In this document: positions 1-24,667 of the stretch, piece by piece
How positions within the stretch are numbered: position 1 is the stretch's first letter
How the letters are laid out: every line of letters begins with the position of its first letter
Assembly (NCBI GenBank): GCA_942493095.1
Contig: OW818675.1
Coordinates: 2,160,001-2,192,000 of the forward strand
Source of the DNA: Candidatus Electronema halotolerans
GTDB lineage: Bacteria; Desulfobacterota; Desulfobulbia; Desulfobulbales; Desulfobulbaceae
Reading direction: 5' to 3'
Length of the DNA: 32,000 bases
Program-made: the position numbers and the translations under genes
The notes under the pieces: generated by a model
The model's database searches: none
The model's input: only the letters and a program-made list of their open reading frames with translations
What the model was told of the DNA's origin: nothing

Positions 1-150
1 GCTCCTGATGCCTGCTGCCACGGCGGCGCTTATCAGGCTGCCCCCTGCGCCTGCTGTCATGGCGGCGCATACCAAGCTGCTCCTGATGCCTGCTGTCATG
101 GCGGTGCCTATCAGGCTGCTCCGGCTGCCTGCTGCCACGGCGGCGAGTAA
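1..150 (+). CDS. 3' end of a RiPP precursor peptide (5' end outside the window): four tandem 13-aa cassettes P-x-A-C-C-H-G-G-A-Y-Q-A-A, ending ...ACCHGGE*
   Basis: Frame 1 reads without stops as APDACCHGGAYQAAPCACCHGGAYQAAPDACCHGGAYQAAPAACCHGGE, with TAA at 148-150. The copies differ almost only at synonymous sites (tgc/tgt, cac/cat, tat/tac, cag/caa, gct/gca/gcc, ccc/cct/ccg). The only amino-acid change is at the residue two positions before CC (D/C/D/A). It lies directly 5' of the cyclodehydratase genes. It is not in the ORF track because no start codon lies inside the window. Confidence 0.8.
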   Translation, partial: APDACCHGGAYQAAPCACCHGGAYQAAPDACCHGGAYQAAPAACCHGGE

Positions 151-207: not shown

Positions 208-376
208 GCCAAAAAGAGGTGCGCAAAGATGCTGGCTGGCAGCAGAAGTTCTCAAGCCCGAGTCTTTGGCTGTACCGCATCCTGCGCCTGCCACCTCTGC
301 CCCCGCAGAGAATGACAGGAGGCCATCTGACGATGGCCTGCACCTCTCCCCTCAGCATACTCCCCCCGAACTCATT

Positions 377-1279
377 ATGCAAAGCACTTTTTTGCAGCTG
401 CGCCGCTGCCGCCGGATACCGGTGCAGGAAAATAAAGTCCTGCTCAAGTCGGCGGACAAGTCGCTGGCTCTTGCTGCGGACAATATTCATAACCTGCTGG
501 ACAGCCTGCTGCCTCTGCTGAACGGAACCTCCACGGAAAAAGAAGTGCTGGCCGCTCTGGTGCCGGAACTGAAGGAGGATGCGGCAGAGGTGCTCCGGCT
601 CTTGGGCAAGGAAGGCTTCTTGGAGACTGGCGCGGAACCGGCCAAGCAGCTGGCTCAGTCCCTGATTATCCTGATCAGCACTGGGCGGCTGGGTGAGACC
701 ATGTCCCGGCATCTGCGTCAATCCGGTGCGGAGCAGGTCGAGGAGATCGATGCCGAGAGCGCGGCGGGCGGGCACCTGCCTGACTCGCTGCAACAGGCAG
801 CTATGGTTGTAGTCTGCACCGACCTGCCAAGGCCCGACCTCTGCGAGGCAGTCAACAAGGCGGCCTTGACCCTCAAGCTGCCGTGGCTGCTGGTTCAGGC
901 TGACGGCAGAGACGGCTGGGTTGGGCCGCTGTTCATTCCCGGCGAGACCGGCTGCTACGACTGCCTGCGCCAACGACTGCTCTCCTGTTCAGTCAGCCCG
1001 GAGATCGACCAAGCCATCCATGCTGCCGCCCTGCGCCAGCCCTTCACGGAGAGTCTGGAACTGCTGCCGCCCTTCCTTGACCTGCTGGCAGCAATGGCTG
1101 CGCTCGAAGCCATCCGCCACCTGAGCGCAGTCAGCCCGCCGCTCACTTACAAGACCCAGATTCTGCTTGACTGCATCAGCGGCATTTCCCGCCGCGATGT
1201 GCTGCATCGGATTCCCCGTTGCCCAAGCTGCTCAACCAGCAGCGAGCAGGTCTCCCCAATCCAGCCTTTCAGCGGGTGA
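377..1279 (+). CDS. TOMM cyclodehydratase partner ('C' protein): E1/ThiF-like fold with an N-terminal RRE-type leader-peptide-binding domain
   Basis: Same frame as track ORF 206-1279; the first ATG is at 377 (MQSTFLQLRRCRRIPVQENKVLLKS...). The N-terminal ~80 aa resemble a PqqD-like winged-helix RRE. Two CxxC pairs (GCYDC and RCPSC) are typical of SagC/E1-like proteins. The stop at 1277-1279 lies 5 nt before the YcaO ATG. The start is uncertain (TTG 206 is possible). Confidence 0.7.
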   Translation: MQSTFLQLRRCRRIPVQENKVLLKSADKSLALAADNIHNLLDSLLPLLNGTSTEKEVLAALVPELKEDAAEVLRLLGKEGFLETGAEPAKQLAQSLIILISTGRLGETMSRHLRQSGAEQVEEIDAESAAGGHLPDSLQQAAMVVVCTDLPRPDLCEAVNKAALTLKLPWLLVQADGRDGWVGPLFIPGETGCYDCLRQRLLSCSVSPEIDQAIHAAALRQPFTESLELLPPFLDLLAAMAALEAIRHLSAVSPPLTYKTQILLDCISGISRRDVLHRIPRCPSCSTSSEQVSPIQPFSG

Positions 1280-1284
1280 CTGCC

Positions 1285-2568
1285 ATGATGAGCGATTTGC
1301 AGATTGCCCCGTGGCAGCGCGGGCAGGAAACGATCTTGGATGCGTTTGTCAGCTCCCGCTTGGGGCCGGTGAAGAAGCTGCAGGAGCTGACCCGCGAGCC
1401 GGACGCGCCGGATATCTTCAGCTATGTGTCCGAGGTCTGCGACCGGACTCAGTTCCATTTTCAGCAGGGCGGCAAGGTCAGCACCGGCATTGGCATCACC
1501 CGCTTTCATGCCCGCACTGCCGCCATCGGTGAATGCTTGGAACGCTACGCGGCCAGCATGTATGACCGGGACAAGGATGTCATCCTCGCCACCTGGAAGG
1601 AAATGATTGGGCAGGGGTTGCGGACTGCCCACCCGGAGGACTTCGGCCTTTACTCGGAAGCCCAGTATCAACGGCATACGTATCTCAACCGCTTCACTGA
1701 GAACACCCGCATTGGCTGGGCCAAGGCCGTCTGCCTGACTGACAGCAATGCGGAGGTCTGGCTGCCTGCCGCCTTCGTCTTTCTGCCCTATCAGTACATG
1801 GCAGGCGAGACCCAAATCTCTTCGCAAATCTCCACTGGCCTGTCCGCCGCATTTGACTTGGACACGGCTGTCATGGGCGGCATCTGTGAGATTGTGGAGC
1901 GGGAAGCGGTGATGCTGACCTGGCTCCACCGCCTGCCCTGCCCAGAGCTGCGCTTCAGCCCGGACTGCTGGTTCAGCGAAGTGTTCCAGCAACGCTTTGC
2001 CCGCTCCGGCTTCGAGTATTATTTGTGCGAGGCTCCGGGCGACCTCGGCCTGCGCACGGTCTTTGCCATGCTGGTGGATAAGGGCCGCAAGGTGATCTCC
2101 ACTGGCTCCTCGACCAAGCCTGATGCGCAGTCAGCCGCGCTCAAGGCCCTGCTGGAGACCGTGCAGGTGCGCGAGCTGCTCCTGTCCATCCCTCGGAACA
2201 GAAAGCCGCCCAAGTTCCACTTGGAGCCGTACCAGCATCTGCCTGTTGATGAAGACCTGCTGGCCTTCTTCACCTGCAGCCAGGGCAAGGAGGCAGGCAG
2301 CAGGGAAGAGCCGCTCACGCTGGAGCACGTGCTGACCAACTGCAAGCAGGCGGGCTTGGATGTTTATGCTGCCGAGCTGACCACCCCAGACCTTGCTGAG
2401 GCGGGCCTGCATGTGGTGCGGGTGGTCATGCCGCAGACCGTGCGCCTGTACCGCGAGTTTGAGCTGCCCTATCTTGGCGGCAGGCGGCTGTACGAGGCTC
2501 CGGTCAAGCTGGGCTTCACCGCCTTGAGCGAAGAGCGGCTCAATCTCAAGCCCCATCCCTTTGGCTGA
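1285..2568 (+). CDS. YcaO-domain cyclodehydratase ('D' protein)
   Basis: GIGITRFHARTAAIGECLERYAA and STGLSAAFDLDTAVMGGICEIVEREAV match the two conserved YcaO nucleotide/Mg-binding blocks. The C-terminus is Pro-rich (...KPHPFG*). ATG 1285 (MMSDLQ...) is preferred to the track start 1219, which would overlap the upstream gene by 61 nt. Confidence 0.85.
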   Translation: MMSDLQIAPWQRGQETILDAFVSSRLGPVKKLQELTREPDAPDIFSYVSEVCDRTQFHFQQGGKVSTGIGITRFHARTAAIGECLERYAASMYDRDKDVILATWKEMIGQGLRTAHPEDFGLYSEAQYQRHTYLNRFTENTRIGWAKAVCLTDSNAEVWLPAAFVFLPYQYMAGETQISSQISTGLSAAFDLDTAVMGGICEIVEREAVMLTWLHRLPCPELRFSPDCWFSEVFQQRFARSGFEYYLCEAPGDLGLRTVFAMLVDKGRKVISTGSSTKPDAQSAALKALLETVQVRELLLSIPRNRKPPKFHLEPYQHLPVDEDLLAFFTCSQGKEAGSREEPLTLEHVLTNCKQAGLDVYAAELTTPDLAEAGLHVVRVVMPQTVRLYREFELPYLGGRRLYEAPVKLGFTALSEERLNLKPHPFG

Positions 2569-2572
2569 CCGC

Positions 2573-3793
2573 ATGAATACTCTCCCGACACTGGCCCGCA
2601 ACCATCGCTTCTGGCTCTTCTGGGGCGGCCAGTCGCTCTCCAAGATCGGCGACAAGCTCCACTACATCGCCCTGCTTTGGTTTGTGGTCAACCGCACCAA
2701 CTCCGGCCTGGCTATGGGCGGGGTTTTGCTTGCCACCGCCCTGCCGCTGGTCCTCTGCGCACCCAAGACCGGCGAGCTGATCGACCGCTGGAACCGGAAA
2801 TGGCTGCTGGCAGGAGCTGATCTGCTCCGGGCTGTGGCAGCCTTCGGCATCGGCTGGGTCACTGCTGGCAAGGGAACAGTCAACTATCCCCTGCTCTTAG
2901 TGCTGACCGCCCTGATGGCCACGGGCACGGCCTTGTTCCAGCCTGCCCTCAACGCCCTGCTGCCCTGGCTGGTGCGGCAGGAAGACCTGCTGCGGGCCAA
3001 CTCAGTCAACGAGAGTTCAACTCAGCTTGCAGGCTTGGCCGGGCCAGTGCTGGCAGGCGTGTTCCTCACCTTTGCCGAGCCGCACATCGTCTTTTATCTC
3101 AACGGCCTGTCCTTCCTGATCGGCGCACTGGCAGTGCTGCCTTTGTCCGTGCCTCCGCCCAAGGCCGCAGCCACCAAGGCAGGCGACTTCCGGGAAGGGC
3201 TGCGCTGGCTGCTGGATCAGCCCAGCCTGCGTGACTTTGCTGTCACCTTTGCCCTGCTCAACTTCGCGGTCAGCTTCATGGAAGTCTATATTCCCTTTCT
3301 CAACAAGGACTGCTTCGGCGGCGGGCCAAAGGAGCTGGGCCTGATTTTCAGCGCCATCTTTGCGGGCGGCCTGCTGGCCTCGCTCGGCCTGATGGTGAAG
3401 AAGGACGTGAGCCAGCCGCAGAAGGTGATCGGCGGCAGCATCAGCCTGATGGGCCTGGCCTTTGCCGCCATCTTTTTCTTCCGCCAGCAGCAGGCCGCCC
3501 TTTGCCTCTTTCTGGTGATCGGCCTTGGCTGGGGAACCTTTGGCAGCTGCTTCCGGGTCTTTGTCCAGAAGAACGTGGAAGACCAGCGGCGGGGCCGGGT
3601 CTTTGCCCTGATCAGCGCACTTGCCAACACCATGATGCCGCTGGCATACAGCCTTGCCGGGCTGATGACCAGCATTCTGCCCGTCTATCCCGCTTTCCTG
3701 CTTGGCGGCCTGCTGACCTTAGCCAGCGGCTTATATTTATACTCAAGGAGATGCCATCATGCCGACCGTCAATGTCAGGCTCAGTCTGCCTGA
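2573..3793 (+). CDS. MFS transporter, EntS / MFS_3-like (putative exporter of the modified peptide)
   Basis: The N-terminus NHRFWLFWGGQSLSKIGDKLHYIALLWFV resembles the enterobactin-exporter-type MFS family. The protein is hydrophobic throughout, consistent with multiple TM helices. ATG 2573 lies 5 nt after the YcaO stop (alternative TTG 2561 overlaps it). Confidence 0.75.
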   Translation: MNTLPTLARNHRFWLFWGGQSLSKIGDKLHYIALLWFVVNRTNSGLAMGGVLLATALPLVLCAPKTGELIDRWNRKWLLAGADLLRAVAAFGIGWVTAGKGTVNYPLLLVLTALMATGTALFQPALNALLPWLVRQEDLLRANSVNESSTQLAGLAGPVLAGVFLTFAEPHIVFYLNGLSFLIGALAVLPLSVPPPKAAATKAGDFREGLRWLLDQPSLRDFAVTFALLNFAVSFMEVYIPFLNKDCFGGGPKELGLIFSAIFAGGLLASLGLMVKKDVSQPQKVIGGSISLMGLAFAAIFFFRQQQAALCLFLVIGLGWGTFGSCFRVFVQKNVEDQRRGRVFALISALANTMMPLAYSLAGLMTSILPVYPAFLLGGLLTLASGLYLYSRRCHHADRQCQAQSA

Positions 3794-4421
3794 AGACAGC
3801 CTGTCCGAGCTGCTGCATAGCGAAACCAAGCTCACGCCGTATCAGCTCCGGCAGTGGCAGTACCAGCAGCCGCCCGTGAGCGAGCATCCGGCCATTGCCA
3901 AGTGGATGCAGGCACCGTTCAAGGAGTATCTTTCCCTGCCGCAGATTGCCCTGCCACCACCTGCGCCTGCGCCAACCGGCAAGCTGGATGCGGCCTGCCT
4001 TGCCGCTCTGCTCCAGCAGCCTGCGGAGATCAGCTCGCTCGAATGCTACCTGTTAGCCACCGAGCTGGACGGCATTGCCCCCGGTCTGCACCATTACAAC
4101 AAGCGCACGCACTGTCTGGAGACCTTTTCGGACAGCCCTGCGCCTGCCCAGCCGCTCCGGCAGCAGATGCCCGACAACGTGGCCGGGCTGCTCATCGTCA
4201 CAGGTGTGCTGACCCGGATGCGCCTCAAGCACGGCGAGCGCGGCTACAGGTATATGCTCTTTGAGGCAGGCCGGGTGCAGGAGCGGCTGCTGACTGCTGC
4301 GGCAGTCCTGCGCCTCTCTGTGGAGCTGCTGCCGGACTTCTTTGACGATGCGGTCAATGCGCTGCTTGGTGTGGATGGGGTGGAGGAGTCGGCACTCTTT
4401 CTCGCCGGGCTGCGGCGGTGA
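3759..4421 (+). CDS. SagB/ThcOx-type (nitroreductase-fold, FMN) azoline dehydrogenase-like protein, short and divergent
   Basis: AAGGAG at 3745-3750 lies 8 nt before the ATG. The C-terminal block KHGERGYRYMLFEAGRVQERLLTAAAVLRLSVELLPDFFDDAVNALLGVDGVEESALFLAGL matches the SagB-family signature (YgeRxYRY..EaGh..qnl.L.a..lGl......f.D......lg.d...e..l....vG). PGLHHYNKRTHCL matches the G-x-Y-h-Y block. It is only 220 aa and overlaps the MFS gene by 35 nt. Confidence 0.6.
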   Translation: MPTVNVRLSLPEDSLSELLHSETKLTPYQLRQWQYQQPPVSEHPAIAKWMQAPFKEYLSLPQIALPPPAPAPTGKLDAACLAALLQQPAEISSLECYLLATELDGIAPGLHHYNKRTHCLETFSDSPAPAQPLRQQMPDNVAGLLIVTGVLTRMRLKHGERGYRYMLFEAGRVQERLLTAAAVLRLSVELLPDFFDDAVNALLGVDGVEESALFLAGLRR

Positions 4422-4489: not shown

Positions 4490-6535
4490 ATGCATAACAT
4501 CTCAGGAAAGAAAGTACTCAGCACCATTGCTCTTGCAGCAGCAATGCTTCCGCAGACAGTGCGGGCATCTTCTTCGGAAAACAGCGAACAGAGCATCATG
4601 CTGGAGGAAATCACGGTCAAGGGCGAGGCGATCACCTCGGTTGACCAGCCCGCCACTGTCAATGTGATTGGCCCGGACGAAATTCAGGAGGTCAAACTCT
4701 CCCAGCCCGAAAAAATTCTTGAGGAGGTGCCGGGGATCGAAATCCACCGCTACGGCATGGGCGGGGTGGCCAATGAGTTTGCCATCCGGGGCTTTCATAA
4801 TGCCGGGCACGGCGGCGATGCTGCCATTGCGGTTGATGGCATTCTCCTCAATGAAGGGGAATCCCATGCTGACGGTTACGCAGACATGAATGTGATCATT
4901 CCCTTGGAGCTTGACCGGGTGGAGGTCTTCAAGGGGCCATCCTCACCGCTGTTCGGCAATTTCGCCCGAGGCGGAGCTATATCCTTCCACACTCGCAAGA
5001 CAGGAGAATACAATACGTTCCAAACTACAGGCGGCTCCTACGATTCCTACGATGTGCAGCATGTCTTTGGCCATGCTCTCAGCGACAGGCTCCAGCTCAA
5101 CACCGCCCTTCAATATTCTTCCACGGGCGGCTATCAGGACAACTCCTCGTGGCAGCGTGGCAACTTCAGCGGCCGACTGGGCTGGCAGGCAAGCCCGGAG
5201 TTTGATGCTGCGCTTTCTCTGCGGGTGCACAGCTCGACATGGGATGCGCCCGGATATATCCCGAAAGCGCAGTTTGAGGATGAGGATGCAGCCCGGCATC
5301 AGGCAGTCAATGCCGAGGATGACGGCGGCGACAAAGCCTTCACCACCCAGCGGCTTGATCTGGGCTGTAACTTGGACAAGAACCAGCGCATCCTTGCCTG
5401 GACCTACTCCACCCAGCAGGACTTCACCCGCTTTGCCAAATTCGGCTACGACCCCGGCGGGCAGACAGAACGGTTTTATGACCGCATGGTCTATGGCGCC
5501 GGGACAAGCTACAACTTTGAAGGCAGCTATGCTGACCGGAAACTGAACGGTGTTGCCGGGCTGGAGTATCTGCACGAAGACACGGACTGGGAGCGGTATG
5601 ACACGGCCAACCGGGTCCGCACCAAGCAGACGCAGGACCGCAATTTCATCATCAACACCCTGTCTTTGTTTGGCCAGATGGATTATGCCCTGCATCCGCT
5701 CTTTGAGCCTTGGGTCGGGCTGCGCTACGATGCCTTTTCCGGCGACTATGAAAATCGGGATCCCGATGCGGTGCCATTCACTGCGGACATGAATGACTAC
5801 GATCACCTCAGTCCGAAGATCGGCTTTCTCAGCAGCCTGACTGATGCCTTGGAGCTGCGGGCCAGTTACAGCCAGGGCTTTGCCCTGCCCTCTGACGTGC
5901 TCAAGTACAACTCGGCAGCCGGAGACACCGCCACTACAGTGCATCAGTATGAAACCGGGCTGCGCTTCGAGCCGGGCGATCTGCTCACCAGCGATCTGGC
6001 CCTGTTCCTGATTGACACCGAAGATGAGATTCAGGAATATCCTTCCGACTCAGGCAGCTATGTCAATCTAGGAGAAACTCGGCGGGAAGGCATGGAGCTG
6101 TCCGCAACCCTGCGTCCGGGCTGGCCCGGCTTTGAGCTGTTCGGCGATCTGACCGTGATCAGCACAGAGATCACCAGCAACCCGGATGCGGCCATGATCG
6201 GCAAGGAAGTCACCGGGGTGCCTGACTACACCAGCAATCTCGGCATCCGTTACCGGGCTGCTTCCGGCTGCAATGGCCGGATCAAGTGGCGGCATGTTGA
6301 CAGCTATTTTGTTGACGACAGCAATACCGCCTCCTATGACGGCTATGACGTGACCGACGCATCTCTCGGCTATGAAGGAAAAACCGGCAACGGCACAGGC
6401 TGGCGGGTCAATCTGGATATCGACAATCTCTTTGACGAGCATTACAGCCAGGCTGTCTGGAGCGGCTACGACACCACCAACTATGCGGTCAGTCCGGGGC
6501 GGACCTTCTGGCTGCGCTTGACGCTGGATATGTGA
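4490..6535 (+). CDS. TonB-dependent outer-membrane receptor
   Basis: Signal peptide MHNISGKKVLSTIALAAAMLPQTVRA. TonB-box-like IMLEEITVKGE. Plug-domain motifs (VEVFKGPSSPLFGNFARGGAISFHT). A long beta-barrel region rich in Y/G/D/N. The C-terminal residue is Met rather than the usual aromatic. ATG 4490 is preferred to the track start 4418. Confidence 0.85.
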   Translation: MHNISGKKVLSTIALAAAMLPQTVRASSSENSEQSIMLEEITVKGEAITSVDQPATVNVIGPDEIQEVKLSQPEKILEEVPGIEIHRYGMGGVANEFAIRGFHNAGHGGDAAIAVDGILLNEGESHADGYADMNVIIPLELDRVEVFKGPSSPLFGNFARGGAISFHTRKTGEYNTFQTTGGSYDSYDVQHVFGHALSDRLQLNTALQYSSTGGYQDNSSWQRGNFSGRLGWQASPEFDAALSLRVHSSTWDAPGYIPKAQFEDEDAARHQAVNAEDDGGDKAFTTQRLDLGCNLDKNQRILAWTYSTQQDFTRFAKFGYDPGGQTERFYDRMVYGAGTSYNFEGSYADRKLNGVAGLEYLHEDTDWERYDTANRVRTKQTQDRNFIINTLSLFGQMDYALHPLFEPWVGLRYDAFSGDYENRDPDAVPFTADMNDYDHLSPKIGFLSSLTDALELRASYSQGFALPSDVLKYNSAAGDTATTVHQYETGLRFEPGDLLTSDLALFLIDTEDEIQEYPSDSGSYVNLGETRREGMELSATLRPGWPGFELFGDLTVISTEITSNPDAAMIGKEVTGVPDYTSNLGIRYRAASGCNGRIKWRHVDSYFVDDSNTASYDGYDVTDASLGYEGKTGNGTGWRVNLDIDNLFDEHYSQAVWSGYDTTNYAVSPGRTFWLRLTLDM

Positions 6536-6628
6536 ACGAGGCAGGGGGGCCTATGCCTTGAGCACCTCCTCAATAATTTCCTGTCATGCGCTGATTGTTG
6601 AAAGATCGCAGACCTCAGTCTGGCTTCT

Positions 6629-6766
6629 GAAATGCACGCTTTCGCAGCTCACGAATGCATGGTTTCGCATCTATCGAATGCATGCATTCGTGCCAATCGA
6701 ATGGGTGCATTCGTACCGATCAAATGCACGCAGTTATATGTTACGAATGCATGGTTTCATGTGCAG
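6629..6766 (+). repeat. Six head-to-tail 23-bp repeats, core CGAATGCATGCATTCG (palindrome), in the leader of the ABC importer operon
   Basis: AATGCA/AATGGG starts at 6631, 6654, 6677, 6700, 6723 and 6746, an exact 23-bp phase. Units: GAAATGCACGCTTTCGCAGCTCA / CGAATGCATGGTTTCGCATCTAT / CGAATGCATGCATTCGTGCCAAT / CGAATGGGTGCATTCGTACCGAT / CAAATGCACGCAGTTATATGTTA / CGAATGCATGGTTTCATGTGCAG. Confidence 0.9.
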
Positions 6767-6841
6767 GAAAACCGGCTGGCCGGGTGCGCCCGGCTCTGCC
6801 CCGCTGTCCTGCAAAATATCTGCTGGAATATTTACAACATC

Positions 6842-8470
6842 ATGAGCAAGAGCTTCATTACGAAATCCCTGATCCCGTTGCAATGGCTGGCAATCCTGCT
6901 CCTGTTTCTTCTGGTCAGCTGTGACCAGCCGGACAAGTCGGCAAAGCAGACTGCAGCCGCGCAGCATCCTGAGACCTTGGTCTTGGCCATCGGCGGCGAG
7001 GAGGAGCAGGGCTATGATCCGACTATGGGCTGGGGCCGCTACGGTTCCCCGCTCTTTCACTCCACCCTGCTCCGCTACAACGACGCGCTGAAGATCGAAG
7101 ACGATCTGGCCACAGGCTACACGGTCAGCGAAGACCGGCTCACGTGGACTGCGGATATCCGCCCGGATGCCCGCTTCTCTGATGACACCCCGGTGACAGC
7201 CGAGGATGTGGCCTACACCTTCAACACGGCCAAGAAGTCGGGCGGCTTGGTTGATCTGCATTTTCTCACCCAAGCTGAGGCGGTGGGCGGGCACCGGGTC
7301 GTCTTTCATCTCAGCAAGCCGCAGTCAACCTTCATCCACCGGCTGCGCACCTTGGGCATCGTGCCGAAACACGCGCACGGCAAGGACTACGGGCGGCATC
7401 CCATTGGTTCCGGCCCGTACAAGATGGTGCGCTGGGATGAGGGCCAGCAGCTTGTTGTTGAGGCCAATCCCCTCTACTACGGAAAAAAGCCTGCCATTCA
7501 GCGGCTGGCCTTTCTCTTTCTTGACCAAGACACCGCCTTTGCCGCAGCTCAGGCAGGGACAGTCCAGATGGCGGCGGTGCCGCAGATTCTGGCGGACAAG
7601 GAGGTTCCAGGGATGCGCCTGGTGCGCGTCACCAGTGTGGACAACCGGGGCATCATGTTTCCCTGTCAACCGGCAACTCATGCGGACTACAAGGGAAAGC
7701 CTGTGGGCAATGATGTCACGGCTGATCCTGCCATCCGCCAGGCAATCAACTATGCCATTGACCGGCAGGCGCTGGTGCAGGGAGTGCTGAACGGCTTCGG
7801 CACCCCGGCTTACGGTTCGGTCAGTCATCTGCCGTGGGAGGAATCGGCAACCCGGTTCAAGGATCATGATCTGGACAAGGCCGCAGCCCTGCTCAAGGCC
7901 GCAGGCTGGGAAGATCATGATCAGGACGGCATTGTGGACAAAGACGGGGTGGCAGCCACGTTCACTCTTCTGTATCCCGCTGACCGGCTGATCCGCCAGT
8001 CTTTAGCCTTGGCAGTGGCGGACATGCTGGCTCCGCTCGGCATCCGCTTGGAGCTGTCCGGCAAAAGCTGGGAGGAAATCCAGAAGGTCCAGCATGCCCA
8101 GGCTGTGCTCTTCGGCTGGGGCAGCCATGATCCGACCGAGATGTACAATCTCTTTTACAGCCAAGTTGCCGGGCAGGGCTATTTCAATCCCGGCTTCTAC
8201 AGCAACCCCAAGGTCGATGCATATTTGGAGCAGGCCATGTCTGCCGCCTCGCCGGAAGAGGCCACGAAATACTGGCGGGCCGTGCAGTGGGACGGCAGCA
8301 CCGGGGTTGCCGCGCAGGGCGATGCGCCGTGGGCCTGGTTAGTCAATCTTGACCACACCTATCTGGTCGATCAGCGGCTTGATGTTGGCACCTCCAGAGT
8401 GGAGCCGCACGGCCACGGCTGGCCGATCACCGCAAACATCACAGAATGGCGATGGAAGGAGGTGCCATGA
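6842..8470 (+). CDS. ABC transporter substrate-binding lipoprotein, family 5 (NikA/OppA/DppA-like)
   Basis: ATG 6842 gives MSKSFITKSLIPLQWLAILLLFLLVSC with a lipobox (LVSC). The rest has the length and composition of a family-5 SBP. The track start 6632 would translate the 23-bp repeat array. No clear SD precedes 6842. Confidence 0.8.
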   Translation: MSKSFITKSLIPLQWLAILLLFLLVSCDQPDKSAKQTAAAQHPETLVLAIGGEEEQGYDPTMGWGRYGSPLFHSTLLRYNDALKIEDDLATGYTVSEDRLTWTADIRPDARFSDDTPVTAEDVAYTFNTAKKSGGLVDLHFLTQAEAVGGHRVVFHLSKPQSTFIHRLRTLGIVPKHAHGKDYGRHPIGSGPYKMVRWDEGQQLVVEANPLYYGKKPAIQRLAFLFLDQDTAFAAAQAGTVQMAAVPQILADKEVPGMRLVRVTSVDNRGIMFPCQPATHADYKGKPVGNDVTADPAIRQAINYAIDRQALVQGVLNGFGTPAYGSVSHLPWEESATRFKDHDLDKAAALLKAAGWEDHDQDGIVDKDGVAATFTLLYPADRLIRQSLALAVADMLAPLGIRLELSGKSWEEIQKVQHAQAVLFGWGSHDPTEMYNLFYSQVAGQGYFNPGFYSNPKVDAYLEQAMSAASPEEATKYWRAVQWDGSTGVAAQGDAPWAWLVNLDHTYLVDQRLDVGTSRVEPHGHGWPITANITEWRWKEVP

Positions 8471-9438
8471 AACGCTTTCTCCGCAAGAAGCTCCTGCAAT
8501 TAGTGCTGATTCTGCCTGCGGTGGCCATGCTCTCCTTTTTCCTGCTCCAGTTTTCACCCATTGACCCGGTCCGGGCCTATATCGGGGCGGACATGCTTCA
8601 GGTGAGTCAGGAGCAGCGGCAGCAGATCGCGGCCCGCTGGGGCTTGGATCAGCCGCCGCTGATGCGCTATCTGCACTGGCAGAAGGAAATCCTCACCGGC
8701 AATATGGGCACTTCCCTGCTCTTTCAGGAGCCAGTGACCAAGGTGATTGCCCGCCGCTTCATTCCCTCCTTAGCCTTGATGGGCACTGCCTGGCTGCTTT
8801 CCGGGCTGATCGGCTTTGTTCTCGGCGTGATTGCCGGACTGCGGCAGAACTCGCTGGCTGACCGGCTTATCCGCCTCTATGCCTACACCTTGGCCTCAAC
8901 TCCGGCCTTCTGGCTGGGAATGCTGCTGATCATCATCTTTTCCGTGCGGCTTGGCTGGACCCCGGTCTGCTGCGCCTATCCGCCGGGCATGTCGCCTGAC
9001 CAAGTGAGCATCGGACAATGGCTCCGTCATCTGCTTCTGCCTGCCGCCACGTTGAGCATCATCTCAGTGGCCGCTGTAACCCTGCACACCCGGCAGAAGC
9101 TGCTGGAGGTGATGGAGACGGATTTTGTCCTCTTTGCCCGCGCCAAGGGCGAAAGCACCTGGGGCGTGTTCCGCCGCCATGCTCTGCGCCACGTCCTGCT
9201 GCCTGCGCTCACGATCCAGTTTGCCTCGTTCGGCGAACTCTTCGGCGGCTCCATCCTGGCCGAGCAGGTCTTTTCCTATCCCGGCCTGGGCGAGGCCACT
9301 GTCCGGGCCGGGCTGGGCGGGGATGTGCCGCTGCTCCTGGGCATTGTCTTAGTCAGCTCCGTCTTTGTCTTTTCCGGCAACGCCATAGCTGACCTGCTCT
9401 ACACAGTTGTTGATCCCCGTTTGCGGAGGACTGTCTGA
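8467..9438 (+). CDS. ABC transporter permease (NikB/OppB/DppB-like)
   Basis: The ATG at 8467 overlaps the SBP stop (ATGA) and GGAAGGAGG lies just upstream. It is a multi-TM protein with a typical N-terminus (MKRFLRKKLLQLVLILPAVAMLSF) and the C-terminal ...LLYTVVDPRLR motif of this permease family. Confidence 0.85.
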   Translation: MKRFLRKKLLQLVLILPAVAMLSFFLLQFSPIDPVRAYIGADMLQVSQEQRQQIAARWGLDQPPLMRYLHWQKEILTGNMGTSLLFQEPVTKVIARRFIPSLALMGTAWLLSGLIGFVLGVIAGLRQNSLADRLIRLYAYTLASTPAFWLGMLLIIIFSVRLGWTPVCCAYPPGMSPDQVSIGQWLRHLLLPAATLSIISVAAVTLHTRQKLLEVMETDFVLFARAKGESTWGVFRRHALRHVLLPALTIQFASFGELFGGSILAEQVFSYPGLGEATVRAGLGGDVPLLLGIVLVSSVFVFSGNAIADLLYTVVDPRLRRTV

Positions 9439-10253
9439 TGCACCAGCGAACCCGCGCCCTTGCAGCGGCAGGAGCCTGCGCCGCCTTTCTGCTGGCCATT
9501 GTGCTCGCCTATTATTTCTTTGTCCCGGAGGTGCTGCGCACGGACCTCAGCCTGCGCAATCAGCCGCCCGGATTCAGCCATCTTTTCGGCACCGACTGGA
9601 TGGGCCGGAACATGCTCCTGCGCACCATTGCCGGGCTGCGCCTCAGCCTCCAGACTGGCCTGACCGCAGCCGCAGCCAGTGCTCTGCTGGCCCTGTTCCT
9701 TGGTCTGGCCGCCGGCATTTTGGGCGGCTGGGTGGACGGCGTGGTCTCCTGGCTCATTGACATCTTCATCAGCCTGCCCCATCTGGTGCTGCTCATTCTG
9801 GTCTCCTTTGCCTTTGGCGGCGGCCTGAAAGGAGTGACTGTCGCCATTGCAGTCAGTCATTGGCCGCGCCTGGCCCGGATTATCCGGGCGGAAACCATGC
9901 AACTCAAGGACAGCCCGTTTATTCATCATGCCCGCTGCTTTGGCAGAACGCCGTGGCAGATCGGGTGGCAGCATATTCTGCCCCATCTGGCGCCTCAGTT
10001 CATTGTCGGCCTGCTCCTGCTCTTTCCTCACGCCATCCTCCACGAGGCGGGCCTGACCTTTGTCGGTCTGGGCCTTTCACCCCATGAACCGGCAGTGGGC
10101 ATCATTCTCGCTGAAGCCATGCGCCATCTCTCCACTGGAAACTGGTGGTTGGCTGTGCTGCCCGGCGCAGCTTTGCTGGCTATGGTCAAAACCTTTGATT
10201 TGATGGGAGAGAATGTGCGCATCCTTCTCCAACCGCGAATAAGTCAGGAATAA
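9438..10253 (+). CDS. ABC transporter permease (NikC/OppC/DppC-like)
   Basis: The start overlaps the upstream stop (TGATG). It carries the binding-protein-dependent transport signature region and hydrophobic TM segments. TAA at 10251-10253. Confidence 0.85.
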   Translation: MHQRTRALAAAGACAAFLLAIVLAYYFFVPEVLRTDLSLRNQPPGFSHLFGTDWMGRNMLLRTIAGLRLSLQTGLTAAAASALLALFLGLAAGILGGWVDGVVSWLIDIFISLPHLVLLILVSFAFGGGLKGVTVAIAVSHWPRLARIIRAETMQLKDSPFIHHARCFGRTPWQIGWQHILPHLAPQFIVGLLLLFPHAILHEAGLTFVGLGLSPHEPAVGIILAEAMRHLSTGNWWLAVLPGAALLAMVKTFDLMGENVRILLQPRISQE

Positions 10254-10266
10254 TCAGGAGGCATTC

Positions 10267-11070
10267 ATGCTGGAAATCGACAACCTGCGCATCTCGTTCA
10301 GCCGCTATGAATACGGATTCAGCCGCCAGCGGATCACCGGGGTCAAGGGCATCTCCCTGCGGGTGCGGCCCGGCTCGATCAACTTGGTGGCCGGGGCCAG
10401 CGGCGCAGGCAAGAGTCTGCTGCTGGCCGCCATTCTCGGCCTGCTGCCTGCCAATGGCAGCAGCAGCGGCAGCATTCGTTTCAAAGGGCAGGAGCATGCT
10501 GACCCTGCCCCGCTCCGAGGCAGGGAGATTGCCCTGATTCCCCAGTCAGCAGATGGGCTGGATCCGCTCCAGCAGGTGGGCAAGCAGGTGCGCCGGGCCG
10601 CCCGGCTGGCCGGGCTGACCAAGAAAGAGGCAGCGGCTCAGACTGAAGCCATGTTCAATCGTTACGGACTGGGCTTGGAAGCACTGCGGCTGTATCCCTT
10701 TCAGCTCTCCGGCGGCATGGCCACCCGGGTGCTGCTGGCCTGCGCCACGGTGGGCCGGGCCGGACTGCTGCTGGCCGATGAACCCACCACCGGCTTGGAT
10801 GAGGACAACTGCCGCCAGGTCTTTGCCCATCTCCGCCAGCTTGCCGACGAGGGCCGGGGCATCCTGCTGATCAGCCATGACCTGAGCGCAGCCCTGCCCG
10901 TGGTCGATGAAGTCACCATTCTCAGAGACGGCAGCTTGGTGGAAACCATGTCTGCTGCCGATTTCCGGCAAGGCATCTGCGATTCTCCGTACAGTCGAGC
11001 ACTGCATCAAGCCCTGCCGGAAAACGGCTTTACGGTCAGTCAATCTTTGCAGGAAGCCTGCCATGCTTGA
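10267..11070 (+). CDS. ABC transporter ATP-binding protein (NikD/OppD-like)
   Basis: CAGGAGG SD. Walker A GASGAGKS, ABC signature LSGGMATR, Walker B LLLADEPTTGLD. Confidence 0.9.
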   Translation: MLEIDNLRISFSRYEYGFSRQRITGVKGISLRVRPGSINLVAGASGAGKSLLLAAILGLLPANGSSSGSIRFKGQEHADPAPLRGREIALIPQSADGLDPLQQVGKQVRRAARLAGLTKKEAAAQTEAMFNRYGLGLEALRLYPFQLSGGMATRVLLACATVGRAGLLLADEPTTGLDEDNCRQVFAHLRQLADEGRGILLISHDLSAALPVVDEVTILRDGSLVETMSAADFRQGICDSPYSRALHQALPENGFTVSQSLQEACHA

Positions 11071-11668
11071 AGCTGCTGACCTCTCGTTTGCCTATAATGG
11101 CGGCAAGCCGATCCTGGACAAGGTGAATCTGCGCGTGCAGCCCGGCGAGGTGCGGGGCCTGACCGCTCCCAGCGGCTCTGGCAAGACCACGCTGGCCAAG
11201 GTGCTCTGCGGGCACCTGCCTGTCCAAGGCGGGGCGATTCGGGTCAACCGCCAGCCCTTGCCTGAGAAAAGCTATTGCCCGATTCAGCTCATCAATCAGC
11301 ACCCGGAGCAGGGCTTTAATCCCCGCTGGCGGCTGGGCAGGTCATTGGCTGAACCTGCGCCGCCTGATCCGCAGCTCCTTGACCGGCTCGGCATCAAAAG
11401 CGGCTGGCTGAACCGTTACCCGCACGAACTCTCCGGCGGCGAGCTGCAACGATTTGCCATTGCCCGCGCCTTGGCTCCACAGACTGCCTTTGTTGTTGCT
11501 GATGAGATCACGGTTATGCTTGATGCCATCAGTCAGGCCCAAGTCTGGCAGGTGCTGCTCCAGACGGCGCAGGAGCGGCAGCTCGGCATGTTGGTCATCA
11601 GTCATAACCGCCACCTTCTCAGCCGCATCTGCACACAGACAGTTGCGATGCGTGATCTCTTCGCCTGA
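11063..11668 (+). CDS. ABC transporter ATP-binding protein (NikE/OppF-like)
   Basis: ATG 11063 (MLEAADLSFAYNGG...) overlaps the upstream gene by 8 nt. Walker A APSGSGKTT, signature LSGGELQR, Walker B FVVADEITVMLD. The track start 10907 lies inside the previous gene. Confidence 0.88.
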   Translation: MLEAADLSFAYNGGKPILDKVNLRVQPGEVRGLTAPSGSGKTTLAKVLCGHLPVQGGAIRVNRQPLPEKSYCPIQLINQHPEQGFNPRWRLGRSLAEPAPPDPQLLDRLGIKSGWLNRYPHELSGGELQRFAIARALAPQTAFVVADEITVMLDAISQAQVWQVLLQTAQERQLGMLVISHNRHLLSRICTQTVAMRDLFA

Positions 11669-11670
11669 AG

Positions 11671-12474
11671 ATGAACCCCATTCAAGCGTGGAAGGACTTC
11701 CAAGACCGCAGCCTCTACTATCAGGCGGTGCGGCGGGATGGCGAGGAACCGGTCTGGCAGGAGATTGCCAAGGACTATGACCGGCTGGTCTATTCTGAGC
11801 AGCAGAAGGAGACGCTGCTGACCAAGCTGACGCACCGTCTGCACGGGATTGAGACCGCGATTGAGATCGGCGCAGGCAGCGGCACTCTCACCCTGCCCTT
11901 GGTCAGGCATCTGCGGGAGATTGCCGCCGTGGAGCCGTCCGCAGCAATGGCAGCGGCCCTGCACGCCAGTCTGGCCGAGCATAAGATCAGGAATGTCTCC
12001 GTCTTTCAGGAGAAATGGGAGAACATGCAGCCTGCTGCGGCGGACGTGGTCTTGGCAGGCGGCTGTCTGTACGTCTTCTACGAGATTGACAAAGTCCTGC
12101 GCAAGATGCTGGCCTGCGCCAAGAAGAAGGTGTTGATCACCCACGTGGGCAACTGCGGGCTGTGGCACTTTGACCGGCTGCTGCTGGAGCGGCTGGGCGC
12201 ACCCAAGCCATGCCTCTTTCCGCCCCTGTCCCTGTTGCTGGACGTGCTCCTCCACCTCCAGCTACCAGCGGTGATGGACATCACCTTTGCCAAGGGCAGG
12301 AAGTGCTTCACCCCGGAGCAATGGCTGCGCCGCTGCCAGCGGCTCTTGCAGCTTGCCGAGCCGCCGCCCGTGCTGCTGGACTTCCTGATGCAGGAATTCA
12401 GTCAGGACGGCGACTGCTGGAGCATGGAGGAGGAGGTGCCGCTGGCTGTGATTGAACTGAGGAAAACATCATGA
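11671..12474 (+). CDS. Class I SAM-dependent methyltransferase
   Basis: Motif I IEIGAGSGTLTLPL followed by an acidic residue (AAVEPS) and the post-I/II pattern. The start is 2 nt after the ATPase stop, and its own stop overlaps the next start (ATGA). Confidence 0.7.
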   Translation: MNPIQAWKDFQDRSLYYQAVRRDGEEPVWQEIAKDYDRLVYSEQQKETLLTKLTHRLHGIETAIEIGAGSGTLTLPLVRHLREIAAVEPSAAMAAALHASLAEHKIRNVSVFQEKWENMQPAAADVVLAGGCLYVFYEIDKVLRKMLACAKKKVLITHVGNCGLWHFDRLLLERLGAPKPCLFPPLSLLLDVLLHLQLPAVMDITFAKGRKCFTPEQWLRRCQRLLQLAEPPPVLLDFLMQEFSQDGDCWSMEEEVPLAVIELRKTS

Positions 12475-14003
12475 GGCAACAAATCGTAGGCCCCCGTGTC
12501 TGCCCAACTGGGTCTGGCGCAAGTACAGGGGCTTGCCCCTACATTATAGGTATTGTTTCTATTCTTCTCTGCATCGTTCTGCTGTGCAGAGGCATGGCGC
12601 AGGCGGCTGGCAACGACAAACTGGTGGTTGCAGTGGGCAGCGATGCCTACACCAGCTCCGGGCCACGGGCCAACTTAGGCAAGTACCCGCTCAACGCCAA
12701 TATTTTTGAGTCGCTGACGACCTTTGACGAGCAGTTCCGCCTCCTGCCCTGCTTGGCTGTGGCATGGGACTATCAAGGCGAGCGCACTTGGCGGTTCATC
12801 CTGCGGCAGGGGGTGCGCTTTCATGACGGCAGCCCGCTCGACGCAGCAGCAGTGCGGGCCTCCTTGGAAGCGCAGCAGCAGGCAGGCACCCTGCTCTTTG
12901 CCTTTGACAAGATCACCGAGCTGGATGCGCACAGCCTCGCCATCACCACGCCGGAAGAGAACCTGATTCTGCCCTACATCCTCTCGCACCCCTACATGGG
13001 CATCAGCAGGCCGGGCGACAAGCCGGTCGGCACCGGGCCGTTCAGATTTGTCCGCCATGTCAAGGATCAGCTTTTGGAGGTGGCGCGCAACGAGGACTAC
13101 TGGGGAGACAAGGCCAAGAGCGCGGGCATCGTCTTCCGCTTCCTGCCGGACAGCGCGGCCCGTCTGCTGGCTTTCCGGGCCAAGGAGGCGGACGTGCTGG
13201 CCGATCTGCCTTGGGAGGCAGTGCCTGAACTGAAAAAGAGCAAGGACATCATCCTCCGCAGCTCGCCGAGGGGGGCTTATGTCGGCCTGATGCTCTCCGT
13301 CAAAGGGCCGCTGGCGGACAGGACAGCCCGGCAGGCGGTCTCCCTTGCCCTTGACCGGCCAGCGATCATCAAGGCGCTCTGGCATGGCTATGGCGAGGCC
13401 CGCCAGACCCTGCTGGCCCCGGCCTTTCTCGGCAAGGCGGCAGAGCTGCTCCCAGACACGCCCTGCGACCCGGCCCAAGCAAGAACGCTGCTCAAGGGCA
13501 GGCCGCTGCGCCTGACTCTGGTGTCCGGCTTTCCCAATGCCGAGGCGCATGGTCTGCTGCCGGAGATCATCCAGAGCCAGCTCCAGGCCGCAGGCATCAG
13601 CATCCAGCTTCAGAAAATCAATGACACCGGTCTCTACCACGACCTGCTCAAGGCGGGCAAAGGCGACCTCTGGCTGGAGCGCGGCAACCTCAACAGCGCC
13701 GATCTAACCTTCCTGCCCCACCTGCTCTTTCACCCAGAGGGTTTTTATCCCAAGCACCTTGGCAGCCCTGCCGGAGGCGCGGCCTTCTGCCAGCGCATCC
13801 ATGCGGCCCGGATAGCGACAAACGATGCAGCCTTCCGCGAGCAGACCGCCTTGGCCCTGCGCGAGATCATTGCTGAGGAGCGGCTTTTCATTCCCATTGC
13901 CGAGCTGCCTTTTCTCCTTGCAGCCCAGCCCGGCGTGCAGATTCCGGCCCTCCACCCCACCCTGCTGACCACGAACTGGGCTGCCTTTGCCAAGCAGCCA
14001 TGA
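12471..14003 (+). CDS. Second family-5 ABC substrate-binding protein (NikA/DppA-like)
   Basis: Hydrophobic N-terminal signal/anchor (IIGIVSILLCIVLLCRGMAQA), followed by family-5 SBP-like sequence (LVVAVGSDAYTSSGPRANLGKYPLNANIFESLTTFDEQFRLLPCLAVAWDYQGERTWRFILRQGVRFHDGSPLDA). The exact start is uncertain. Confidence 0.8.
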   Translation: MRQQIVGPRVCPTGSGASTGACPYIIGIVSILLCIVLLCRGMAQAAGNDKLVVAVGSDAYTSSGPRANLGKYPLNANIFESLTTFDEQFRLLPCLAVAWDYQGERTWRFILRQGVRFHDGSPLDAAAVRASLEAQQQAGTLLFAFDKITELDAHSLAITTPEENLILPYILSHPYMGISRPGDKPVGTGPFRFVRHVKDQLLEVARNEDYWGDKAKSAGIVFRFLPDSAARLLAFRAKEADVLADLPWEAVPELKKSKDIILRSSPRGAYVGLMLSVKGPLADRTARQAVSLALDRPAIIKALWHGYGEARQTLLAPAFLGKAAELLPDTPCDPAQARTLLKGRPLRLTLVSGFPNAEAHGLLPEIIQSQLQAAGISIQLQKINDTGLYHDLLKAGKGDLWLERGNLNSADLTFLPHLLFHPEGFYPKHLGSPAGGAAFCQRIHAARIATNDAAFREQTALALREIIAEERLFIPIAELPFLLAAQPGVQIPALHPTLLTTNWAAFAKQP

Positions 14004-14194
14004 TGCGGCGCTGACCTTGTTTTTCCTCATCCTCCAGGCATGGCCGCCCGCACGACCGGGCAGTCTGCCCAGCAAAATGAGGCTGCCGCCCTATTGTCCG
14101 GGCGGGAGAATTATGCTTTATTCCTGCCCAGTGCCTGCTGCTTTTTCCACACCTCCTTCCTTTGTCATCATCCGTACCTTGGAAAAAGCAGAAG

Positions 14195-14391: not shown

Positions 14392-14652
14392 ATGAAAGGA
14401 ACCCACGAGCACGAGCATCAGCATGAGCATGCACATGAGCATCAGCATGAGCATGAGCACGCGCATGGCGACAGCAAGCACAGCCATGAGCACGGTCATG
14501 AACATGCGCATGGCCATAAGCACGAGCACAAGCACCCCCATGATCACAGCGGCGCAGGCAATGCCCATGAGCATGAGCACAAGGGTGAGCATGGGCAGCA
14601 TGACCACAGCCATGCTGGCCATGAGCAGGAGGAGCATTCGCACAAGCATTGA
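14392..14652 (+). CDS. Histidine-rich metal-binding protein (Hpn-like; alternating H-x-H)
   Basis: AAGGAG lies 7 nt upstream of the ATG. The 86-aa product is MKGTHEHEHQHEHAHEHQHEHEHAHGDSKHSHEHGHEHAHGHKHEHKHPHDHSG...EEHSHKH, with 34 His by my count. No signal peptide. Confidence 0.75.
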   Translation: MKGTHEHEHQHEHAHEHQHEHEHAHGDSKHSHEHGHEHAHGHKHEHKHPHDHSGAGNAHEHEHKGEHGQHDHSHAGHEQEEHSHKH

Positions 14653-16874: not shown

Positions 16875-16908
16875 CAGGTATCAATACGTACAAGGAGGAG
16901 TGACAAGC

Positions 16909-24468: not shown

Positions 24469-24469
24469 G

Positions 24470-24667
24470 TCAACCGCCTCCAACAAAACTGAGCAGCTCC
24501 ACTGTGTCCCCATCCTGGAGGACATGCTGCTGCCAGTGTTCTTTTTTAATCAGCTCAAAATTGACTTCCGCGACTATCGCATCAGGAACAAAGCCTTGTT
24601 CCGCGATCAGCTCGCGCAAAGTCTGGTCTGCGGTGTCAACCGGCTGGCCGTTCAGAATTATTTGCAT
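24470..24667 (-). CDS. thiS: Sulfur-carrier protein ThiS
   Basis: [10 protein letters not shown]...[10 protein letters not shown] is 65 aa with the C-terminal Gly-Gly. ATG 24667 is preferred to the track start 24697. Confidence 0.85.

Follow-up and report, generated by a model that had tools for sequence, protein, structure and literature searches.

A multi-cassette Cys-Cys-His precursor gene beside azole-forming enzymes and metallophore-type transporters in Candidatus Electronema halotolerans

What is made by a short gene of Cys-Cys-His repeats that lies directly in front of azole-forming enzymes and among transport genes of nickel type? We addressed this question in a 32,000-nucleotide stretch of the Candidatus Electronema halotolerans genome (contig OW818675.1, positions 2,160,001 to 2,192,000, forward strand), referred to here as the window, and in related loci, which carry numbers of the form L001. 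[quoted passage not shown] The transporter genes conserved with it imply a metallophore function, and the product is probably a metallophore. The precursor gene occupies the edge of the window:

1–150, plus strand: 3′ 150 nt of the 198-nt RiPP precursor gene (65 amino acids), with the stop at 148–150

Translated in frame 1, these positions read APDACCHGGAYQAAPCACCHGGAYQAAPDACCHGGAYQAAPAACCHGGE followed by a stop. Tandem Repeats Finder called a 39-nt period in the precursor region (3.7 copies, score 163) and, as a second call, a 78-nt period (score 218). Both results bear out the original prediction, which had read a multi-cassette Cys-Cys-His reading frame at the window edge from the nucleotide letters alone. 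Its count of four cassettes also stands, but its register does not, the natural one being [S/A]-Y-[N/Q]-A-A-P-x-A-C-C-H-G-G.

Both leader and start codon had been placed upstream of the window, and this is where they are found. The upstream sequence was taken from an identical metagenome contig, L001, which was located through an exact match of the window's nitroreductase-like protein; window position 1 corresponds to L001 6243. On this contig, an in-frame stop is followed by a Shine-Dalgarno sequence (AAGGTGA) and then by an ATG at L001 6195, 48 nt upstream of the window. The precursor is therefore a free-standing 65-residue gene. Neither a stop without a start nor the tail of a large protein, two outcomes that would have spoken against the prediction, was seen upstream, and the in-frame stop, Shine-Dalgarno sequence, ATG, and a ratio of non-synonymous to synonymous divergence (pN/pS) of ≤0.14 rule out both a large-protein tail and an untranslated repeat. 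The complete peptide, MAVHAEVLKPEASYNAAPDACCHGGAYQAAPCACCHGGAYQAAPDACCHGGAYQAAPAACCHGGE, contains 9 Cys and consists of the leader MAVHAEVLKPEA, four copies of [S/A]Y[N/Q]AAPxACCHGG, and a final E. The leader is only about 12 residues long, since the end of the apparent leader already mimics the cassette linker.

The peptide is translated and strongly constrained, as had been proposed. Pairwise differences among the four 39-nt copies amount to 6–12 nt, 2–7 of them in synonymous codons, and residues change only at cassette positions 1, 3, and 7 (position 7 reading D, C, D, and A). Across 10 orthologous and paralogous precursor genes, pN/pS was 0.00–0.14, with pS of 0.30–0.91 except in two near-identical L110/L115 orthologue pairs (0.02 and 0.07); for the 65-residue gene itself, pN/pS was 0.02–0.14 at a pS of 0.3–0.9. 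Between two tandem paralogues of L110, 13 changes are synonymous and 0 are non-synonymous. The gene is unannotated, as the exact 65-residue sequence is missing from a collection of 5.8 billion proteins. No Pfam or NCBIfam family matched the precursor and no paper describing the cassette was found, in line with the earlier remark that the cassette was not recognized from any described family. A sub-threshold Pfam match to 'Galaxin-like repeat' was driven by composition and was set aside. The precursor has no signal peptide.

The peptide had further been assigned the position of a TOMM substrate. Consistent with this, the genes for a C protein with RRE-like and E1-like domains (RRE, RiPP recognition element), a SagD-type YcaO, and a SagB-like dehydrogenase lie directly downstream, and a methyltransferase gene belongs to the same cluster:

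377–1279, plus strand: TOMM 'C' protein, an RRE-like N-terminal domain with an E1/ThiF-like domain (TIGR03882, AlphaFold/Foldseek)
1285–2568, plus strand: YcaO cyclodehydratase ('D', SagD type; Pfam YcaO at 3.6e-60, TIGR03604)
3759–4421, plus strand: SagB-like flavin mononucleotide (FMN) dehydrogenase ('B', 220 amino acids; Pfam Nitroreductase, TIGR03605)
11671–12474, plus strand: class I S-adenosylmethionine methyltransferase (MT), in the cluster in all lineages and directly after B elsewhere

The C protein scored 65.6 bits against TIGR03882 (cutoff 36.9). Its AlphaFold (AF2) model, with a mean predicted local distance difference test score (pLDDT) of 74.9, shows N-terminal strands and three helices followed by an E1-like fold; 10-residue block means are 77–91 across residues 11–80, and the best Foldseek matches are TruD, LynD, MccB, and McbB. 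The YcaO protein reached 235.4 bits against TIGR03604 (cutoff 219.25) and is identical to CAK8720027.1, annotated as 'ribosomal protein S12 methylthiotransferase accessory factor'. Among solved structures, both C and D are closest to MusD, TruD, and LynD, which are cyanobactin heterocyclases. The B protein (identical to CAK8720038.1) scored 28.8 bits against Pfam Nitroreductase (cutoff 23.5) and matched PDB 3EO7 at 1.9e-19. A SagD-type YcaO, an E1-like partner with an RRE, and a small, selected, Cys-bearing precursor characterize TOMM clusters, and the homologies found here would place the locus in that class. No domain of the multinuclear non-heme iron-dependent oxidase (MNIO) family (DUF692, MbnB-like) was present among the window open reading frames (ORFs) scanned against Pfam, so that the likeness to MNIO-modified copper-binding peptides suggested earlier holds as an analogy only. 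Likewise, the scanned window ORFs showed no peptidase domain, of PatA/PatG or any other type, and the gene tables for L002, L112, and L115 list none.

How widely is this arrangement conserved? The precursor family is very rare, with about a dozen loci, mostly in cable bacteria; its members carry 2–4 cassettes and occur as 1–3 tandem genes. A word-indexed protein search returned four relatives (P0001–P0004), and a profile hidden Markov model run against 1.84 billion representatives returned no small peptides beyond these four, the other matches being proteins of 283–6389 amino acids. A DNA scan for CCHG-x9-CCHG across 185,579 GTDB species representatives gave 103 stretches, of which 2 are family members (Ca. 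Electronema aureum GS and Desulfobulbaceae UBA5173); judged by translation, the others look like Cys/His-rich parts of CobW-type GTPases or SlyD-type FKBPs, or like out-of-frame chance matches. DNA pattern scans also gave three metagenome contigs with the family, and homologue look-ups added loci in Ca. Electrothrix sp. AUS3 and others. Since the precursor at L116 20–208 has cassette spacings of 12 and 14 residues instead of 13, scans with a fixed spacing give too low a count. Throughout the family, the leader is short and β-strand-like, [VI]x[AV]xVLK…, and the motif Y-x3-P-x-[AG]-C-C-H-G is invariant, with C, D, A, or S as the residue before Ala. Electrothrix-type loci hold two or three intact tandem precursors (L110, L115, L118); those of AUS3 (L118 1195–1954) are three identical genes, one of them uncalled.

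The genes around the precursor follow a conserved order of TonB-dependent receptor (TBDR), precursor(s), C, D, major facilitator superfamily (MFS) exporter, B, MT, solute-binding protein (SBP), two permeases, and two ATPases. This order is most complete in L002, L110, and L115, while L072 covers the stretch from TBDR to MT, L112 lacks the MFS gene and places the TBDR after B and before MT, and L118 comprises only the three precursor genes, C, and D. In the window, two of the transport components are:

2573–3793, plus strand: MFS_3/EntS-like exporter, by family resemblance to EntS
12471–14003, plus strand: cognate family-5 solute-binding protein (SBP2), with 52% identity to its counterpart in L002 and 49% to that in L112

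Identities between the window and L002 are 51% for YcaO, 51% for MFS, 52% for SBP2, 44% for MT, 41% for C, and 36% for B. The cognate TBDR forms its own clade, with 50–75% identity across lineages, and the synteny of enzymes and transporters is kept down to 46% YcaO identity. These cross-lineage identities, together with the separate receptor clade, indicate that the transport genes co-evolve with the enzymes. Metallophore loci are marked by biosynthetic genes that cluster and are inherited together with genes for an exporter, a TonB receptor, and an ATP-binding cassette (ABC) importer that depends on an SBP, and gene content would place this one among them. The pattern does not extend to a wider class of TOMM clusters with TonB receptors, as the next-nearest YcaO proteins (P0016 and P0017, at 35% and 30% identity) belong to thiopeptide or other TOMM clusters without such transporters. 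The cognate TBDR gene, just upstream of the window, abuts the precursor in other lineages; in this genome only, a NACHT/NB-ARC STAND NTPase gene lies between the two (L001 4714–5907, minus strand).

A further link between the peptide and its uptake genes is a shared upstream element, which in the window precedes a second group of genes:

14045–14135, plus strand: promoter/operator element, second copy (core 14075–14103), CCGGGCA-N3-TGCCCAG..AAAATGAG-N8-CCTATTGTCCGGGC, with an extended −10
14392–14652, plus strand: 86-residue, extremely His-rich protein, almost entirely His and Glu (HEHEHQHEHAHEH...), an unlisted ORF after the shared element
14766–16874, plus strand: second TonB-dependent receptor (TBDR2), nearest to the NCBIfam FCYXU motif-type model, under its cutoff

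The element spans about 60 nt and consists of the inverted repeat CCGGGCA-N3-TGCCCrG followed by AAAATGAG-N8-CCYMATTGYNCGGGC. Within it, TTGTCC or TTGCGC and, 17 nt later, TGnTAtnnT read as a −35 and an extended −10. This promoter was read by eye from an alignment of 11 sequences; a consensus sigma-70 and terminator scan found nothing, and no Rfam family or known metalloregulator box matched the element. Copies lie at L001 1091–1119 and 6019–6047, L081 1698 and 4905, L110 326, L115 5922 and 15177, and L118 915, always in the orientation of the downstream genes. The element precedes the precursor gene in Electronema- and Electrothrix-type loci and the cognate permease/receptor operon (L001 1091, L081 1698), and its copy at 14075–14103 precedes the genes for the His-rich protein and TBDR2. 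Since precursor, uptake operon, and His-rich protein share it, the element suggests that the peptide, its uptake system, and a putative metal-binding protein form one regulon. The His-rich protein, whose sequence includes MKGTHEHEHQHEHAHEH… (also given as MKGTHEHEHQHEHAHEHQHEHEHAHGDSKHSHEHGHEH…), resembles Hpn-type nickel storage proteins and matches no NCBIfam family. TBDR2 scored 717 bits against the selenocysteine 'FCYXU motif-type' model (cutoff 825); it has a single Cys, and the motif itself is absent.

These observations bear on two other functions that the peptide might have. It could be an ordinary antibacterial linear azole-containing peptide (LAP) of the microcin B17 or plantazolicin kind, with transporters that are unrelated or serve export only. 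The functionally characterized LAPs known to date are all toxins or antibiotics; moreover, NCBI names the C protein 'bacteriocin biosynthesis cyclodehydratase', and a methyltransferase is also found in plantazolicin clusters. However, the TBDR, the SBP, and the ABC importer have evolved along with the enzymes across lineages whose identity falls to about 45%, an importer beside an antibiotic cluster would be self-harming, and the promoter element is held in common with the uptake genes and the His-rich protein. With no immunity gene, no ABC exporter, and a core that merely repeats Ala, Cys, His, Gly, Tyr, Gln, and Pro, we regard an antibacterial role as improbable.

Alternatively, the peptide could stay in the cell or periplasm and buffer or store metal, like bufferins, captophorins, or Hpn. 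Repeated Cys cassettes recall the EGKCG repeats of captophorins (PMC13097082), the shared element also precedes the Hpn-like protein, and CCHG-type stretches occur, by translation, in the metal-binding tails of proteins resembling CobW-type GTPases and SlyD-type FKBPs. Yet the genes conserved here include those for an MFS exporter, a TBDR of siderophore type, and an SBP/ABC importer, whereas bufferin-type clusters lack uptake receptors, and the precursor has no signal peptide. A retained peptide is, in our estimate, less probable still than an antibacterial one.

What the analysis shows is a gene under selection, its set of enzymes, a conserved synteny, and a shared promoter element; the pathway that follows, with its chemistry, export, re-import, and metal, is what we infer for the metallophore. 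The E1-like C protein would bind the leader (…AEVLKPE…) through its RRE domain, and YcaO, at the expense of ATP, would turn the Cys pair of each A-C-C-H cassette into thiazolines by cyclodehydration, possibly together with the third Cys in PCACC. The SagB-like flavoprotein would then use FMN to oxidize these to thiazoles, giving a 2,4′-bis-thiazole beside His, and the conserved methyltransferase would add a methyl group somewhere on the product. This product may be the intact peptide with its four sites or, as the transporters make more likely, units of 13 residues released by some protease. It would leave the cell through the EntS-like MFS pump, bind a scarce metal outside, and re-enter as the metal complex by way of the cognate TonB receptor of siderophore type, then SBP2 and the Nik-type ABC permease. 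In each thiazole-thiazole-His site, the predicted ligands are two azole nitrogens, a deprotonated His amide nitrogen, and the imidazole nitrogen, forming 5-5-6 chelate rings. From coordination chemistry, this is the geometry of the amino-terminal Cu(II)- and Ni(II)-binding (ATCUN) site. The locus would thus represent TOMM chemistry serving a metallophore purpose, with a new precursor family. We favor, with moderate confidence, an exported and re-imported thiazole-His metallophore for which nickel is the likeliest metal.

The case for nickel draws in part on a second set of transport genes, inserted between B and MT:

4490–6535, plus strand: TonB-dependent receptor 1 (TBDR1), part of the inserted candidate nickel-import module (sequence; PMC11247825)
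6842–8470 (listed ORF start 6632), plus strand: YntA-like lipoprotein (SBP1), a predicted nickel binder by similarity to YntA
8446–9438 and 9438–10253, plus strand: two Nik/Opp-type permeases
10267–11070 and 11063–11668, plus strand: two Nik/Opp-type ATPases

SBP1 aligned over 495 residues with Yersinia pestis YntA (PDB 4OFL), at about 50% identity (482 bits, E = 1.4e-143); by sequence it is orthologous to YntA, and it is predicted to bind nickel, with MbnE as a distant match. The module of TBDR1, lipoprotein, two permeases, and two ATPases (4490–11668) corresponds to the TonB-dependent transporter (TBDT) plus Nik/Opp/Dpp operon proposed in a comparative study of 2024 as a cable-bacteria-specific candidate nickel importer, uncharacterized as yet; the adjacent TOMM genes are not mentioned there (PMC11247825). 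As for the cognate system, SBP2 (identical to CAK8720077.1) scored best with the nickel Opp5A_nikA model and PDB 3T66, the cognate permease and ATPase reach their highest scores with nickel Opp2B, NikB, and NikD, and the cognate TonB receptor reached 240 bits against the siderophore-receptor model TIGR01783 (cutoff 223.5). Nickel is favored because the closest characterized relatives of all uptake components are nickel systems, because a YntABCDE-like importer is inserted in the middle of the cluster, and because cable bacteria in sulfidic sediment have an exceptional nickel demand. Taken by itself, the choice of nickel is a tentative one, to which we give somewhat less than an even chance.

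A metallophore of the same design could instead serve copper, as a YcaO-made chalkophore, or cobalt or zinc. Thiazole nitrogen, imidazole, and unmodified thiolate are good ligands for Cu(I)/Cu(II), Co, and Zn; the logic of TBDT, family-5 SBP, and exporter parallels that of methanobactin, whose MbnE is the distant match of SBP1 noted above; a cobalamin methyltransferase gene and a DUF4198 gene lie nearby; and relatives of the Opp1 and Cnt systems carry Ni, Co, and Zn. On the other hand, the top models for permease, ATPase, and SBP2 are consistently nickel ones, a YntA-type nickel module sits in the cluster, and no copper-handling genes (CopA, CusF, or MbnPH-like) were found among the Pfam-scanned window ORFs. 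We consider another metal unlikely, though the most serious of the alternatives.

Several points count against the nickel metallophore as proposed. The cognate transporter's matches to nickel families all fall under the curated equivalog cutoffs, and the YntA-type insertion is seen only in the Ca. E. halotolerans locus and thus says less about the ancestral cargo. Azole nitrogen, imidazole, and thiolate ligands would suit Cu, Co, or Zn equally well. Sites for NikR (types I and II), Fur, and Zur were looked for and none was convincing, so regulation by metal would be conjectural. With respect to the chemistry, the B protein is short, and its match to TIGR03605 (1.5e-17), at 63.6 bits, is under the cutoff of 78.4; the conserved cluster contains no protease, so more than one product size is conceivable. 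An MFS pump would be an unusual exporter for a peptide of 5–6 kDa, and the TOMM products characterized so far are all toxins or antibiotics.

A different connection to nickel would make the peptide a precursor of the sulfur ligand in the nickel bis(dithiolene) (NiBiD) units of conductive fibers. The family is enriched in cable bacteria, its vicinal Cys pairs neighbor nickel import genes, and both the biosynthesis of the NiBiD units in the fibers and their nickel supply are unresolved (PMC13534509). But YcaO chemistry uses up thiols to form thiazolines and makes no dithiolenes, and the fixed-spacing motif occurs in only 2 of the 185,579 GTDB species representatives, whereas fibers occur in all cable bacteria. 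In addition, Ca. E. gigas lacks the adjacent import operon (PMC11247825), and the same architecture is found in the more distant members L002–L004 and L112. We give this idea very little credence.

Two further features follow the precursor and precede the C gene:

153–172 (8 bp) and 177–207 (13 bp), plus strand: two stem-loops just 3′ of the precursor stop (−38.6 kcal/mol, z = −5.35)
216–376, plus strand: decayed second precursor copy, with an SD-like GAGGTG at 217–222, an ATG at 229, and a leader-coding remnant

A hairpin stands at this position in all family members, with no U-tract in Ca. Electronema halotolerans, and the stem-loops probably attenuate transcription or stabilize the mRNA. 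A hairpin after the precursor is usual in RiPP operons that over-express it. The Rfam scan gave no family at gathering score in the window and, near the precursor, only a chance match to the signal recognition particle RNA.

In the decayed copy, the ATG at 229 has a frame offset of +1, and part of the first cassette survives as a remnant. The 28-residue ORF that starts there (MLAGSRSSQARVFGCTASCACHLCPRRE) was considered as a peptide gene and rejected as a conserved peptide, since L001 and L005 differ in it by about 1 synonymous and 7 non-synonymous changes. A 20-nt leader-coding core at 242–261 is identical to that of the functional copy (L001 6484–6503 versus 6207–6226) and shows zero substitutions in either copy across six Electronema-type loci, with a gene-wide pS of 0.37–0.6 in the pairs measured. 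The AEVLKPES frame is open in the window and is in frame with the ATG of the C protein in 7 of the 7 lineages examined, at distances of 117, 120, 120, 126, 135, 135, and 141 nt, all multiples of 3. The linker between the two is frameshifted between lineages, and its protein sequence is not conserved. Two gene calls begin at an ATG upstream of the AEVLKPES motif; L072 has a stop codon within the region, and in the window a TTG is the only in-frame start. The segment may encode a natural leader-mimic joined to the cyclodehydratase partner, or it may be an RNA-level element.

Beyond TBDR2, the window contains these further genes:

16900–18540, plus strand: 546-residue protein following TBDR2, with two cobalamin-type tetrapyrrole-methylase domains
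18677–19690, minus strand: insertion sequence (IS)-type DDE transposase
19901–20719, plus strand: DUF4198 periplasmic protein
22565–24525, minus strand: radical-SAM/BATS protein (ThiH- or BioB-like) beside ThiG
24775–31902, minus strand: 2375-residue ORF without a Pfam match, very acidic (E, A, and D more than half)

The DUF4198 family has been linked to nickel and cobalt uptake. The transposase, the DUF4198 protein, and the radical-SAM/BATS protein beside ThiG suggest that the cluster lies within a metal- and cofactor-related, partly mobile region. The 2375-residue ORF is built of repeats such as ELDSFFNFDDDDEPAAALK and LDDFFSMEDDADTS, and a 1901-residue ORF is open on the strand opposite it.

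The acquisition of nickel and its routing into the fibers of cable bacteria are an open question, for which the locus offers a concrete candidate ligand, and one that is testable because it is encoded by one short gene and three or four enzymes. If the proposal is right, there is a second, chemically independent route to ribosomal metallophores, by ATP-dependent azole formation rather than MNIO oxidation, and TOMMs are no longer confined to toxins. Metal capture or bio-electronic materials could also make use of such a cassette, which is compact, genetically encoded, and would bind Ni/Cu at several sites. The RiPP metallophores found in the literature (methanobactins, bufferins, and captophorins) are all made by MNIOs, and in our literature search no paper connected YcaO to metallophores or to TonB receptors, and none connected cable bacteria to YcaO or to RiPPs. 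The product may be the first metallophore made by YcaO/TOMM enzymes, a ribosomal 'nickelophore' with ATCUN-like square-planar sites that feeds nickel-dithiolene fibers from sulfidic sediment; this is a speculative extension, held with more reserve than the choice of nickel itself.

Compared with known systems, the locus follows the LAPs and other TOMMs, such as microcin B17 (McbBCD) and plantazolicin, in its enzymes. As there, a split C protein with E1-like and RRE parts and a SagD-type YcaO lie beside a small leader-core precursor, with the SagB-like protein as the candidate dehydrogenase; a small residue stands before Cys, the contiguous Cys could give a bis-azole as in microcin B17, and, as in plantazolicin, there is a methyltransferase. 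It differs in its leader of about 12 residues, its 2–4 identical 13-residue cassettes each with an invariant His, and a precursor that matches no precursor family model; in place of an immunity gene or ABC exporter, it conserves a TonB receptor and an SBP-dependent importer.

With the cyanobactins (PatE; PatD/TruD/LynD), which its enzymology also resembles, it shares several identical cassettes per precursor, an 'AY…' after each core, and, in TruD, LynD, and MusD, the closest solved relatives of C and D. However, C and D are separate proteins here, and no PatA/PatG subtilisin-like protease/macrocyclase is present in the window or the related loci, which argues against a cyanobactin system. The gene content points instead to linear products with a metallophore logic.

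That logic is the one known from methanobactin (MbnA, MbnBC, MbnM, MbnT, MbnE), in which a ribosomal peptide has Cys converted to N-heterocyclic metal ligands, as predicted here, and is secreted and taken up again by means of an exporter, a TonB-dependent receptor, and a family-5 periplasmic binding protein. The differences lie in the use of YcaO, E1-like, and FMN enzymes rather than the MNIO MbnB with MbnC, in the predicted thiazoles and His rather than oxazolone-thioamide groups, and in the multi-cassette precursor and nickel-type transporter relatives. Bufferins and captophorins likewise turn tandem short Cys repeats into metal-binding heterocycles, as would be the case here (PMC13097082, PMC11626156), but their thiooxazoles are made by MNIOs, they serve copper detoxification, and they are Sec-exported without TonB/ABC uptake genes. 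The locus is thus neither a methanobactin nor a captophorin system, as it has no MNIO enzyme.

Finally, the transport genes resemble the nickel systems YntABCDE, NikABCDE, and CntABCDF (staphylopine), with SBP1 about 50% identical to YntA and the permeases and ATPases scoring best against Nik, Opp1, and Opp2 nickel models. Whereas the cargo of those importers is Ni-(His)2 or opine metallophores from small-molecule pathways, here it is a RiPP pathway that adjoins them.

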